Source: Candidatus Zambryskibacteria bacterium RIFCSPHIGHO2_01_FULL_46_25 (GTDB lineage Bacteria > Patescibacteriota > Minisyncoccia > Phycocordibacterales > Zambryskibacteraceae). From it: a stretch of DNA of 49,300 nt. Below the pieces are notes generated by a model, which saw only the letters and a list, made by a program, of their open reading frames with translations, searched no databases and was not told the origin of the DNA. Each line of letters opens with the position of its first letter. Position 1 is the stretch's first letter. Positions 22,719 through 44,196 of the stretch are shown here, piece by piece. Position numbers and translations under genes: made by a program. The stretch is taken from positions 70,939 to 120,238 of the forward strand of contig MHVH01000006.1 in assembly GCA_001825155.1 (NCBI GenBank), read 5' to 3'.

Positions 22719-22754
22719 TACGTTATAATTTCACTGTGGTGAGCTAATAACGTA
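22719..22754. repeat. 36-bp palindromic direct repeat A1 (left flank of PaaX-like gene 1)
   Basis: TACGTTATAA-TTTCACTGTGGTGAGC-TAATAACGTA; 32/36 identical to 23349-23384. Confidence 0.9.
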
Positions 22755-23320
22755 TGGGTAAACTGGAGCAACAAAGCAGAAAAAGAAGCAAGAGGAAACA
22801 TTTGCAGCAAATTATTTTAGCTACGGTAGCCGGTGCCGGTATTTTGGGTATTGGCCTCCTGGCTCCAAACGTGTTAGGGGCTATGGCGAAACTCGGTATT
22901 ATTCCAAATAGGAGGCAAAAAGAATATGTTAGTTCTTCCGCGAGCAAGATGGTTAAGAAGGGTCTTATGAGATTTAATGGAAAATTTTATGAACTTACCA
23001 TGGCCGGCCAAGAAAGGCTTCGCAGATGGGAATTTAATCAATTCAAATTCGAAAGACCGAAAAAATGGGATAAAAAATGGCGAGTGATTATTTTCGACAT
23101 ACCAGATAAAAAGAGAAAGGAGCGCGATCAGATAAGAACCCTTTTTAAGTCCGCCGGGTTTTATCTGTTACAAGAAAGTGTTTGGGTCTATCCTTATGAC
23201 TGCGAAGATATCATTGCACTATTGAAAACTGATTTCGGGGTCGGGAAAAATCTTCTCTATTTAATTGTTGAAGAGTTGGAAAACGATCGATATCTTAGAG
23301 ACGAATTCGACCTTGTCTGA
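22754..23320 (+). CDS. PaaX-like protein (winged helix plus Cas2-like domain)
   Basis: YELTMAG, KKWDKKWRVIIFDIPDKKRKERDQIR, GFYLLQESVWVYPYDC. Confidence 0.85.
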   Translation: MGKLEQQSRKRSKRKHLQQIILATVAGAGILGIGLLAPNVLGAMAKLGIIPNRRQKEYVSSSASKMVKKGLMRFNGKFYELTMAGQERLRRWEFNQFKFERPKKWDKKWRVIIFDIPDKKRKERDQIRTLFKSAGFYLLQESVWVYPYDCEDIIALLKTDFGVGKNLLYLIVEELENDRYLRDEFDLV

Positions 23321-23348
23321 AATTTCTTCTACTATATAAATTATTGTG

Positions 23349-23384
23349 TACGTTATTATCTCACTGTGGTGAGTTTATAACGTA
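23349..23384. repeat. 36-bp palindromic direct repeat A2 (right flank of PaaX-like gene 1)
   Basis: TACGTTATTA-TCTCACTGTGGTGAGT-TTATAACGTA. Confidence 0.9.
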
Positions 23385-42239: not shown

Positions 42240-42464
42240 ATGCATGTAAAGAAAGGAGACAACATCATAGTGCTCGCGGGCAAGGACAAGGGAGTTGTCG
42301 GCAAAATTTCGCGTGCCCTGCCCAAAGAGGATATGGTGCTAGTCGAGGGTGTAAATTTGAAAAAGGTTCATCAGAAATCGAAGAAAGGCAAGGGCAAGGG
42401 GGAAATAATCGAGAAAAATTTTCCGATACACGTCTCTAACGTAAAACTCCATGGCAAAACTTAA
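42240..42464 (+). CDS. rplX: 50S ribosomal protein uL24 (short)
   Basis: KKGDNIIVLAGKDKG, VEGVN, PIHVSNV. Confidence 0.95.
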   Translation: MHVKKGDNIIVLAGKDKGVVGKISRALPKEDMVLVEGVNLKKVHQKSKKGKGKGEIIEKNFPIHVSNVKLHGKT

Positions 42465-42963
42465 AGAAAAAACAAAATTAATGCCGGGCTACAAGAATCC
42501 GATGCAGATGCCGAGGATTATGAAGGTGATTGTTTCTTCCGGTGTGGGTTCTTTCAAAGACAAGGCGAAATTTAAGATTGTCGAGGACAGGCTTGCGCGC
42601 ATTACCGGGCAGAAGGCCGCTCCTCGCGGGGCAAAGGTTTCTATCGCCACTTTCAAATCTCGCACAGGCGACATTGTGGGCTACCAGGCGACACTCCGAG
42701 GCAAGAGGATGCACGACTTCCTCGAGAAGCTTATTCATATCGCTTTGCCAAGAACCAAGGACTTCCGCGGTATTTCTCCCGCGGCCGCCGATGAGATGGG
42801 GAACTATACTTTGGGTATCAAAGAGCACACCATTTTCCCGGAAACCTCCGACGAAGAGCTCAAGGACGTCTTCGGCTTCGCTATCACTATCGTTACCACC
42901 GCAAAGTCGAAGGACGAAGTCGTAAAATTCCTTGCCCATCTCGGCTTTCCCTTTAAGAAATAA
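42451..42963 (+). CDS. rplE: 50S ribosomal protein uL5
   Basis: NPMQMPRI, ITGQK, TLRGKRM, LPRTKDFRG, GNYTLGIKEHTIFPE. Confidence 0.97.
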   Translation: MAKLKEKTKLMPGYKNPMQMPRIMKVIVSSGVGSFKDKAKFKIVEDRLARITGQKAAPRGAKVSIATFKSRTGDIVGYQATLRGKRMHDFLEKLIHIALPRTKDFRGISPAAADEMGNYTLGIKEHTIFPETSDEELKDVFGFAITIVTTAKSKDEVVKFLAHLGFPFKK

Positions 42964-42996
42964 GTTGTAGTTTTAGTAAAAAGTAGTTTTTGCAGA

Positions 42997-43032
42997 TACA
43001 TAATAAGCCAGCTATAGCATTGTTATTATGTA
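42997..43032. repeat. 36-bp palindromic direct repeat B1 (flank of PaaX-like gene 2)
   Basis: TACATAATAA-GCCAGCTATAGCATTG-TTATTATGTA; 33/36 identical to 43643-43678. Confidence 0.9.
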
Positions 43033-43057
43033 TATAGTGAGGCAGTATTTTAGATTA

Positions 43058-43627
43058 TTAGATGAGGTCGAAATCCATGCGTAAAAATCGATCGTCTTCT
43101 ATCTGGTCTACAATCATATAAAGTAAATTTCTCCCGATCCCGAAATCGGTTTTCATCAGTCCTATAGCATCTTCACAGTCGTAAGGATAAACCAATACAC
43201 TGTCCTGCAACCGGCGGAAGCCTGCATTTGTAAGTATTTCTCGAATCTGCTCCCGTATTTTCTTTTTCTTTTCCGGAATGTCAAAAATTATCACCCTCCA
43301 CTTCTTGTCCCATTTTCTGGGTCGCCTGATTTTGTACCTGGAAACTTGCCAATCGTTCAAGATATCTTCTCCGGTGCGAGTCAATGAATATCGCCCGTCT
43401 TTAAACACAACTAATCCTTCATTGCTTAACCGGGTCGCCGCCGTCTTTACTATTTCGCTCTTTCTGGGGGAAGATGTCGAGAGGTCGGTGCCTAATAGCG
43501 AATCTACGACTTGTTTTATCAGCAAGTCTCCCCCTATCCTCCCGCCTGAAGCAATAGTCAAAAGAATTGCCTCTTGCATTCTTGTTTTTCTTATATTCTT
43601 CCGGTTTACTGCCTCAAGTTCTCCCAT
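43058..43627 (-). CDS. PaaX-like protein (winged helix plus Cas2-like domain), paralogue of 22754..23320
   Basis: YSLTRTG, RKWDKKWRVIIFDIPEKKKKIREQIR, GFRRLQDSVLVYPYDC. Confidence 0.85.
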   Translation of the reverse strand: MGELEAVNRKNIRKTRMQEAILLTIASGGRIGGDLLIKQVVDSLLGTDLSTSSPRKSEIVKTAATRLSNEGLVVFKDGRYSLTRTGEDILNDWQVSRYKIRRPRKWDKKWRVIIFDIPEKKKKIREQIREILTNAGFRRLQDSVLVYPYDCEDAIGLMKTDFGIGRNLLYMIVDQIEDDRFLRMDFDLI

Positions 43628-43642
43628 GTGTAAATATTCTAC

Positions 43643-43678
43643 TACATAATAAGCATGCTATAGCATTGTTATTGTGTA
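43643..43678. repeat. 36-bp palindromic direct repeat B2 (flank of PaaX-like gene 2)
   Basis: TACATAATAA-GCATGCTATAGCATTG-TTATTGTGTA. Confidence 0.9.
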
Positions 43679-43720
43679 TATTGACAGAATCATGGCTGAA
43701 TTAGTTATCCCCTTTCCTGG

Positions 43721-43908
43721 TTGCAAGCAGATTCATGGGGGCTATGATTAATACATCCGGCACGAGCTGGTAACCGTCGAATCGAGGCGAAAGTCTCGGG
43801 GAGGGTGTGCGTATGATGAAGAGGAAGTTCAGCAAACACAAGGCACCGATGAAGCGCTGAGCGCCGTCGCGCCGGTCCGGGGGGCAGCCACGGCTGCCCC
43901 CTCTTTTT
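43721..43908 (+). other. Small transcription unit: ncRNA or 15-aa basic peptide gene
   Basis: TTGCAA-16-TATGAT; CGAGGC-GAAA-GTCTCG hairpin; SD GGAGG; MMKRKFSKHKAPMKR* (43813-43860); GGGGGCAGC/GCTGCCCCC terminator. Confidence 0.5.
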
Positions 43909-44010
43909 ATTTGATATTTATAACCGAGGCTGTAGCTGGTGCCTTCTTGTATAAGAATAATTCTTATGTTAAGCTGGGTTCTGCTCGAAAGAGCCTATTT
44001 TTTCGCTTAA

Positions 44011-44196
44011 ATGGCCAAAACATCGGTAATAGCAAGGTCGAAAAAGAAGCCCAAGTTTAGCACCAGGGCCACTTCGCGTTGCTTTAAGTGCGGACGGGGA
44101 CGTGGCTTCATGAGAGACTTCGGTCTCTGTCGCATCTGTTTCCGAGAGCTTGCTAATGAGGGGAAAATTCCGGGTATCAAGAAATCATCCTGGTAA
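44011..44196 (+). CDS. rpsN: 30S ribosomal protein uS14 (zinc-binding type Z)
   Basis: [24 protein letters not shown]. Confidence 0.97.

Follow-up and report, generated by a model that had tools for sequence, protein, structure and literature searches.

A short PaaX-like gene between paired palindromes in the rplE-rpsN spacer of a Zambryskibacteria genome is one member of a large family of site-gene-site units

We analyzed a 49,300-nucleotide (nt) stretch of the genome of an ultra-small bacterium from groundwater, Candidatus Zambryskibacteria bacterium RIFCSPHIGHO2_01_FULL_46_25 (MHVH01000006.1, contig C6 here, positions 70939-120238), referred to below as the window. The genome (G000) comprises 581,808 bp in 7 contigs and is 96% complete; labels such as C3 and C5 refer to its contigs. 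Between the ribosomal protein genes rplE and rpsN, antisense to the ribosomal-protein row, lies a gene for a 189-aa "mini-PaaX" protein (gene B and protein B), which is flanked by two copies of a palindromic repeat (B1 and B2). The gene and its two palindromes are together called cassette B. The features of the locus are as follows.

42451-42963, rplE (Pfam Ribosomal_L5)
42997..43035, no strand, palindrome B1, downstream copy of gene B, 25 nt past the gene B stop and 33 nt past the rplE stop
43058..43627, minus strand, gene B, 189-aa winged-helix plus Cas2-like (PaaX_M) protein (Pfam, NCBIfam, and structure model)
43636..43641, minus strand, -10-like hexamer TAGAAT, 2 nt after B2 and 8 nt before the ATG (sequence reading)
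43643..43681, no strand, palindrome B2, upstream copy of gene B and probable operator over its promoter
43681..43686, plus strand, TTGACA directly beyond B2, facing away from gene B, with no good -10 behind it
43947..43975, plus strand, promoter-like block before rpsN (TTGTAT, 17 nt, TG-n-TAAGCT; sequence reading)
43975-43997, plus strand, hairpin and T-run after the promoter-like block (fold search)
44011-44196, rpsN (Pfam Ribosomal_S14)

The 36-nt repeats at 42997-43032 (B1) and 43643-43678 (B2) are identical at 33 of 36 positions, and their in-register extension to 39 nt (42997-43035 and 43643-43681) gives 36/39 identical positions (92%). Each copy is an imperfect palindrome composed of AT-rich 10-nt arms, 4-nt spacers, and the 8-nt core GCTATAGC. 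The outer arms read TACATAATAA and TTAT(T/G)ATGTA, and B1 has an arm pair of 11 nt with full (100%) complementarity. A degenerate pattern of the repeat matched the window exactly twice, and none of 100 dinucleotide shuffles contained any match. An earlier note on this DNA had described a PaaX/Cas2-like gene with its own 36-bp repeat pair that splits rplE from rpsN in antisense orientation; the repeat identity, the position and strand of gene B, and the Pfam matches on either side bear this out.

We examined the domains and predicted fold of protein B. Pfam PaaX_M (PF20803) matched residues 104-172 (E 9.8e-18; 64.5 bits, cut-off 24), and Pfam CRISPR_Cas2 scored 22.6 bits, just short of its cut-off of 23.8. 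The NCBIfam cas2 profile TIGR01573 scored 28.0 bits, above its cut-off of 24.5, over residues 111-145 only, and the NCBIfam PaaX equivalog TIGR02277 scored 39.7 bits, far below its cut-off of 264.55. PaaX_M and Cas2 were the only matches in the Pfam search of protein B; no transposase domain was found, and no Pfam winged helix-turn-helix (wHTH) family exceeded its cut-off. In an AlphaFold model built from 47 family sequences (predicted local distance difference test score, 76.8), helices 3-27, 33-44, and 55-69 together with a hairpin at 73-82 form a winged helix, and residues 110-185 form a ferredoxin-like domain. Foldseek placed PaaX 8A39 first (E 3.7e-5), followed by Rv0674 3KFW and then by Cas2 proteins. 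In VIA comparisons, residues 1-99 resembled DNA-bound wHTH regulators (Z about 10), residues 109-184 matched Cas2 6jhz (Z 9.0; root-mean-square deviation 3.4 over 71 residues), and PaaX 8A39 was matched across 161 residues (Z 9.3).

Protein B thus shares with PaaX (E. coli W, 8A39; Rv0674, 3KFW) the order of an N-terminal winged helix and a Cas2-like middle domain. However, PaaX has about 305 aa, compared with 189 aa in protein B, and its PaaX_C domain binds the inducer according to a review (PMC9493321); PaaX_C (PF08223) was found neither in protein B, which ends at residue 189 after the Cas2-like domain, nor anywhere in this genome. With CRISPR Cas2 proteins (SSO1404 2IVY, 6JHZ, and 5ZYF) protein B shares the ferredoxin-like fold at residues 109-184 and a score above the NCBIfam cas2 cut-off, whereas it differs in being fused to a winged helix, in its Pfam score under the cut-off, in lacking Cas1 and an array as companions, and in occurring in nine copies, each with its own palindrome pair. 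Cas1 (PF01867) had no match in this 96%-complete genome, and the control search was positive in 7 of 14 genomes. No CRISPR-like array was found in the genome (no 16-mer recurring at least 3 times at 45-90 nt spacing), no PHROGs family was matched, and PADLOC gave local Cas2 matches only. Because the genome has neither Cas1 nor a CRISPR-like array, an assignment of protein B as a CRISPR Cas2 was rejected. These results indicate that protein B is a short PaaX-like protein rather than a CRISPR gene product, and that "Cas2-like" is a resemblance of fold.

The same arrangement was found at a second place in the window, as the earlier note had reported:

22719..23384, plus strand, cassette A (paralog of B), with palindrome 22719-22754, gene 22754-23320, and palindrome 23349-23384

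The upstream palindrome of cassette A holds TATAAT and ends in ATG, and proteins A and B are 48% identical. The whole genome has nine family genes, eight full-length ones (46-69% identity to B) and a divergent 165-aa PaaX_M relative, and all nine are flanked by a private pair of 34-39-nt palindromic direct repeats whose sequence varies from gene to gene. One copy lies at or just 5' of the start codon and the other 7-41 nt past the stop, or 93 nt past it in the divergent 165-aa gene. The nine cassettes make up about 1% of the 582-kb genome. A possible core-less relic of a palindrome had also been proposed, within cassette A at 23327-23350. Its right 10-mer equals the right arm of B2 and occurs six times in the genome, four of them in family palindromes or in the relic itself; no counterpart was present at the same place in any of six A-clade relatives.

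Relatives of the family were then counted in contigs representing one genome per species. At least 545 stretches were found, on contigs labeled Zambryskibacteria or Parcubacteria, and the best 80 were examined. A flanking direct repeat was detected in 59 of these 80 at a score of at least 18 and in 67 at a score of at least 15, compared with 0 of 75 in a control in which the downstream window was displaced by 600 nt. The two palindromes of one gene were identical at a median of 31/36 positions, those of different cassettes at 20/36, and the best match of the upstream copy was the downstream copy of the same gene in 54 of 77 cassettes. Chance, or mis-assembly at a repeat, would be another way to obtain such a layout, and we give it a vanishingly small probability: the shuffled sequences lacked the pattern, all nine paralogs and 59-67 of the best 80 relatives share the layout, and a 1032-nt contig from a run of another study covers 42762-43793 without a single difference. 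The argument of the earlier note that a replicated architecture makes chance unlikely is therefore strengthened. In viral contigs, the 76 pattern matches included one partial family relative, which had no flanking repeats, so carriage of the family by phages was unsupported. A literature search found no description of the family, subscription journals lying outside its coverage. Cassette B is thus one member of a large family of site-gene-site units of Patescibacteria.

We next compared the numbers of genes and palindromes across the genus. With an eight-paralog profile (E <= 1e-20), 37 genomes of the genus contained 0-8 family genes each; none were found in 12 of the 37, and of the 22 with a completeness of 90% or more, nine had none. 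Palindromes were counted with an arm pattern allowing at most 2 mismatches, for which the backward pattern gave 0-1 matches per genome. The 25 gene-bearing genomes contained 165 matches (22 genomes with at least one) and the 12 gene-less genomes contained 4 (three genomes with at least one), with a Spearman coefficient of 0.74 between gene and palindrome numbers (n = 37, kin and so not independent). The nine near-complete gene-less genomes had 0-2 matches each, and inspection of the few matches in five gene-less genomes of 96-99% completeness showed nothing resembling a family member. These results show that genes and palindromes are present or absent together, as an accessory set of selfish type. 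In one genome of 82% completeness (G013), 15 family palindromes accompanied one gene at E <= 1e-20, so solo palindromes can far outnumber genes.

The anatomy of the palindromes was compared within pairs. Within a pair, identity between the two copies is highest at positions 2-4, 15-22, and 30-36 and lowest at positions 8-14 and 23-29 (n = 78), a pattern that points to a conserved core and to outer contacts spaced about 30 bp from each other. As single strands, the palindromes fold weakly (-4.6 to -8.6 kcal/mol). In the B clade, the arms are constant (TACA(Y)(W)ATAA) and the cores vary (GCTATAGC, CCTATAGG, GCGATCG, GCGACCGC, ACGACCGT, and GCCATGGC). Arm type was tracked by protein columns of which 7 of the top 14 lie in helix 55-69 (residues 56, 58, 59, 62, 63, 64, and 66), and core type by columns of which 7 of the top 14 lie in 119-146, a region including the Lys/Arg-rich first helix (119-135) of the Cas2-like domain. 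Among close pairs (at least 55% identical), a changed core with the same arm went with excess differences of +0.086 in 119-135 and -0.005 in 55-69, and a changed arm with the same core with an excess of +0.143 in 55-69; these column analyses are exploratory, their effects are small, and the pairs are not independent and are confounded by relatedness. As a lead, helix 55-69 may track the arms and helix 119-135 the core.

Furthermore, the position of the upstream palindrome relative to the promoter was examined in 88 cassettes, eight of this genome among them, of which 75 had a palindrome pair. A sense TATAAT was present in the upstream copy in 47/75 and in the downstream copy in 22/75, upstream only in 27 and downstream only in 2, whereas the antisense TATAAT used as a control was found in 16 upstream and 14 downstream copies. 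The upstream palindrome reaches the ATG in 46 of the 75. In the B group it ends 15-20 nt before the ATG, and by eye a TAnnnT hexamer lies 2-8 nt past the upstream palindrome in 7/10 members, compared with 0/10 past the downstream copies. In gene B itself, TAGAAT (43641-43636) is placed 8 nt before the ATG, which would give a leaderless or near-leaderless mRNA. A review (PMC9493321) gives TGATTC-N27-GAATCA as the operator of E. coli PaaX, a palindrome whose half-sites are spaced by about three turns of the helix, and states that PaaX acts on Px, its own promoter, as a repressor through steric hindrance. Because B2 overlaps the gene B promoter, autorepression is the likely core function of gene B, by analogy with PaaX.

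Family sites in this genome were picked by eye from 71 loose-scan matches (TAC...GTA-type ends and at least 12/18 palindromic pairs). There were 37, namely, 18 flanking the nine genes and 19 solos at 11 intergenic loci. At six solo loci, palindromes of two types abut with zero spacing (C3:26142/26178, C3:60768/60804, C3:75014/75050, C5:58137/58173, C5:141153/141189, and C5:215481/215517), and the junction always reads ...GTA followed directly by TAC.... Abutting palindromes were also found in genomes G003, G006, and G043, and pairs of the same types in the same order are met again in other genomes (G003, G010, G034, and G043) at loci that are not orthologous. A search of 108 cassette loci to a distance of 2.5 kb gave no such pair. 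The arrays come in twos or threes (C3:26142-26247, C3:60768-60839, C3:75014-75085, C5:58137-58208, C5:141153-141224, C5:215481-215552, and L224:1428-1537). Some solo types have no cognate gene in this genome.

These distributions bear on whether the nine proteins could be plain paralogous transcription factors of an ordinary regulon, with the palindrome pair serving looping autoregulation, the solos acting as host operators, and the rest being ordinary gene turnover. The overlap of upstream copies with promoters would suit such a regulon, as would a solo 17 nt 5' of a gene start that contains TATAAT (C3:25418), and the members of the PaaX family are described as repressors with widely spaced half-sites (PMC9493321). 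In two relatives, moreover, a solo palindrome stands 1 nt from a consensus promoter of another gene (see below). However, 4 of the 11 solo loci are flanked by convergent genes and should hold no promoter, so the solos are not confined to promoter regions; with 21-24% of all spacers being convergent, the difference is not significant, and an enrichment of solos in such spacers was rejected. The abutting of different palindrome types at six loci and the recurrence of the same ordered pairs elsewhere also argue against a regulon. In addition, B1 is closer to the distant solo C3:75050 (35/36, including the variable spacer positions) than to its own partner B2. The absence of any family gene from 9/22 near-complete congeners, almost without palindromes, argues that dozens of 36-bp sites were copied in rather than evolved in place. 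We therefore consider an ordinary regulon unlikely, while regarding it as an alternative of some weight. Relative to PaaX, the family sites differ in carrying a conserved palindromic core between the arms, in standing on both sides of the gene, and in belonging to nine paralogs with private sites, solos, and arrays, and the whole set is present or absent among congeners.

Other repeats were noted beside the solos. At C5:58108-58898, direct repeats of about 65 nt, each of which ends in the palindrome type that flanks the family gene C5:190904, enclose an unrelated gene of 166 aa that matches no Pfam family (58262-58762, minus strand); this segment resembles a cassette that carries other cargo. 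At C5:66925-66951 and C5:215455-215480, a perfect palindrome of 20 nt (CACTATGATATATCATAGTG) adjoins solo palindromes. Heptad repeats of AAATCCT type adjoin other solos (C3:74960-75010), and several repeat families gather in such spacers.

The history of cassette B was approached by comparing two junctions. In a quick maximum-likelihood tree, gene B fell into a clade of nine (Shimodaira-Hasegawa-like approximate likelihood ratio test, 98) with the relatives L050-L055 and L057 and with C5:190904 of the same genome. L050-L053 and C5:190904 sit between a ThrRS-like class-II synthetase gene and a LysRS-like gene (named by eye and from Pfam class-II domains). Among 29 congeners, a cassette is present at this junction in six, and the junction is compact and empty, with 44-115 nt and no palindrome, in eight. 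A single palindrome without a gene, of three different types, is found in three, and a longer gap of 312 nt without a palindrome in one; in the remaining 11 the LysRS-like gene was not found within the 1.5 kb searched. Because L050-L053 and C5:190904 sit at the ThrRS-like/LysRS-like junction, gene B at rplE-rpsN is an extra copy in a new place.

The rplE-rpsN gap was examined in the 15 relatives of the genus whose locus contains both genes. It measures 24-27 nt in four, 81-84 nt in three, and 266-1362 nt in eight, in which it holds unrelated cargo. The earlier note had called this junction normally contiguous, which is true of the four with 24-27 nt but not of the eight with cargo. Among the cargo are a RelE/HigB-like open reading frame (ORF; 23.6 bits, where the cut-off is 27) that has a partner upstream of it, a gene with an Endonuclease VII domain (33.1 bits), a small ORF of membrane type (66-68 aa), and genes of unknown family. 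Cargo-bearing gaps are, for example, L021:2005-2563 and L022:2094-2690, and also those of L025, L030, L027, and L031. A mini-PaaX gene was present at this junction in none of the 15. Two of the 15 (L023 of G015 and L028 of G003) carry a single family palindrome of B arm type 30-40 nt past the rplE stop, at the spot of B1, and the arms and core of the L023 palindrome are those flanking the B-clade gene of G015 itself. The earlier note had made a lack of single repeats at this junction in gene-less relatives part of the case against mobility, and these two loci each have one.

In L023 and L028, the palindrome is followed after 1 nt by a TTGACA-17-TATAAT promoter and a gene of 142-149 aa, and the arrangement in the window, where TTGACA follows B2 after 2 nt, recurs there. 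Between these two loci, a segment about 60-110 nt past the palindrome shows 81% identity over 78 nt, whereas the coding parts are diverged; the region behind the promoter could be a conserved leader. Directly before rpsN, the last 60-75 nt contain a conserved promoter-like block (TTGAAT/TTGTAT, 17 nt, TG-n-TAAGCT) and a T-run hairpin (L021-L037). The block is found in the relatives with a gap of at least 81 nt and in the window, as a shared 3' block by blastn, and may provide the ribosomal row with an internal promoter and a leader. Its conservation suggests that the row was already split there. The rplE-rpsN spacer of the genus thus has the look of a landing pad for selfish-looking genes.

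The remaining part of the spacer in the window was also searched. The 256-nt segment 43680-43935 has no second copy in the genome or in any fetched locus, and its folding is not unusual (z -1.14). A strongly basic ORF of 15 codons (MMKRKFSKHKAPMKR) behind a GGGGAGGG stretch was noted at 43813-43912, with a strong terminator-like hairpin after it at 43879-43902. Rfam over 42900-44100 gave a chance-level match alone (ceN113, E 0.62).

The reading that we favor, with moderate confidence, is that cassette B is a self-contained, autorepressing site-gene-site unit, an accessory element akin to repetitive extragenic palindromes (REPs) and REP-associated tyrosine transposases (RAYTs), which arrived by recombination at a resident palindrome. 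The anatomy of the unit, the matching of gene and site, the overlap with the promoter, and the patterns of presence and absence are direct observations on which this reading draws. Protein B would bind DNA as a dimer, in which the recognition helix of each winged helix would read one outer arm of the 36-bp palindrome and the Cas2-like domains would pair over its center. Protein bound at B2 would occlude the promoter and thereby halt further production of the protein, in the manner of PaaX at Px. B1 would close the unit, and may serve as a second operator for looping, as a roadblock parting rplE read-through from the antisense transcript, or as both. As for arrival, the most economical route would start from a palindrome of matching type that was present at rplE-rpsN beforehand. 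Recombination there would bring in the gene and one palindrome, or in reverse take them out, by host RecA or with the help of the protein. The insertion was probably tolerated because rpsN would have its own promoter.

Movement was sought in public data. The stretch is contained in 20 public runs, all as contigs and none listed as RNA, and four of them (X9, X11, X15, and X19) were compared. The genome has RecA, one tyrosine recombinase, and two serine recombinases, and the single tyrosine recombinase lies far from any cassette examined. No target-site duplication was found outside the cassette ends, the flanks of the relatives being too diverged to define an empty site, and the ends themselves are direct copies of a palindrome and so read as direct and inverted repeats alike. 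An attempt to define insertion boundaries from a trmD-like/rpoB-like spacer (names by eye) against the gene-less genome G032 was abandoned since the alignment was too diverged.

Several results weigh against the favored reading. In the contigs of the four runs, the cassette was in place and no deletion or circle joints were found; the circles of about 646 bp that the earlier note had suggested looking for were accordingly not among them, and as contigs cannot show rare forms, excision is neither supported nor excluded. At the ThrRS-like/LysRS-like junction, the eight compact cassette-free relatives have no palindrome at all, and units there appear mostly to be gained or lost entire, both palindromes included. 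Simple recombination of one copy with the other is disfavored because it would leave one palindrome. A test for hybrid sites, as expected from a cut or crossover at the palindrome center, was also negative, with inner, outer, upstream, and downstream half symmetries alike (14.4, 13.8, 14.0, and 14.5 of 18, respectively; n = 78); the small differences between half-sites are as expected if the promoter constrains the left half of the upstream copy. A search for a -35 element of gene B gave no convincing candidate. The Mantel test of palindrome against protein distance was significant for both halves of the protein (N-terminal half, r 0.35; C-terminal half, r 0.44) and so did not point to the winged-helix half in particular, and the small effects of the column analyses and their confounding by relatedness count here as well. 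Binding, repression, and movement are all deduced from sequence. The earlier proposal of mobility is therefore upheld in part: the unit is an add-on at this site, where none of the 15 relatives has the gene, but no circle, deletion joint, or link to a recombinase was found.

The closest parallel to such a unit is offered by REP/RAYT systems ("REPtrons"). According to Nunvar et al. (2010), RAYT genes are flanked by cognate palindromes with which they co-vary and co-evolve, the presence of RAYTs is tied to REP abundance, and REPs form composite arrays (PMC2817692). The family described here likewise has a gene between two cognate palindromes that co-vary with it, intergenic dispersal, composite arrays, and a gene presence tied to palindrome abundance. 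It differs in having a winged helix and a Cas2 fold instead of an IS200/IS605-type Y1 (HUH) tyrosine transposase, 36-bp palindromes of duplex type that form weak hairpins, a number of sites per genome of about 20 compared with more than 100, several gene and site types in one genome, and an upstream site that doubles as promoter region. A second parallel is the integron cassette, which consists of one gene and an imperfectly palindromic attC site and is moved as a circle by IntI. Both are one-gene units bounded by imperfect palindromes, and the idea of a circle of gene and site entering a resident site is shared; here, by contrast, a site stands on both sides, the matching protein is encoded inside, there is no integron platform, and no circle was seen in the contigs of the four runs.

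The parallel with RAYTs can be taken further. The Cas2-like domain might be a working nuclease that cuts at or near the palindromes and so moves or copies the sites, the arrays, and its own gene. Each RAYT feature listed by Nunvar et al. (PMC2817692) has its counterpart here, and the abutting junctions are uniform. The Cas2-like half is also the conserved half (mean pairwise difference 0.35, compared with 0.55 in the N-terminal half), and ten polar residues in it are invariant in 47/47 sequences (D107, R111, D116, R125, Q141, S143, C151, E152, K159, and E177). Of these, D116, at the end of strand 1, aligns in a weak match (E 0.33) with the Asp of the LIFYDI motif of Cas2 SSO1404, which we take to be catalytic; protein B has the similar local motif IIFDI, and the PaaX-like protein 3kfw has no Asp at the corresponding position. 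However, protein B resembles Cas2 weakly and locally, neither a target-site duplication nor a cut-site signature turned up, the test for hybrid sites came out negative, and the copy number of about 20 per genome is low. RAYT substrates are hairpins, unlike the weak single-strand folds of these palindromes, and RecA and the tyrosine and serine recombinases could act instead. We therefore regard an active nuclease as improbable. It is just as doubtful that a winged-helix/Cas2-fold protein copying or moving its own palindromes represents a new class of palindrome-spreading element, similar to REP/RAYT but built on a Cas2-type nuclease; if true, it would be a free-living relative of the CRISPR adaptation protein, acting on repeat-sized palindromes.

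New in this work are the genus-wide all-or-nothing count, the recurring abutting arrays, the history of the rplE-rpsN junction, and the dissociation of arm and core. Since the family passes the NCBIfam cas2 cut-off, labeling its members as Cas2 would inflate counts of "CRISPR" genes in ultra-small bacteria. The family is notable because its units take up about 1% of a 582-kb genome with little spare room and it has at least 545 relatives, yet the literature searched gave no description of it. If the proteins and palindromes are matched repressor/operator pairs, they would be natural orthogonal DNA-binding modules with a readable arm/core code. If they spread their sites as well, they would represent a second, independent invention of the REP/RAYT lifestyle, and would bear on the roles of the Cas2 fold before and outside CRISPR.

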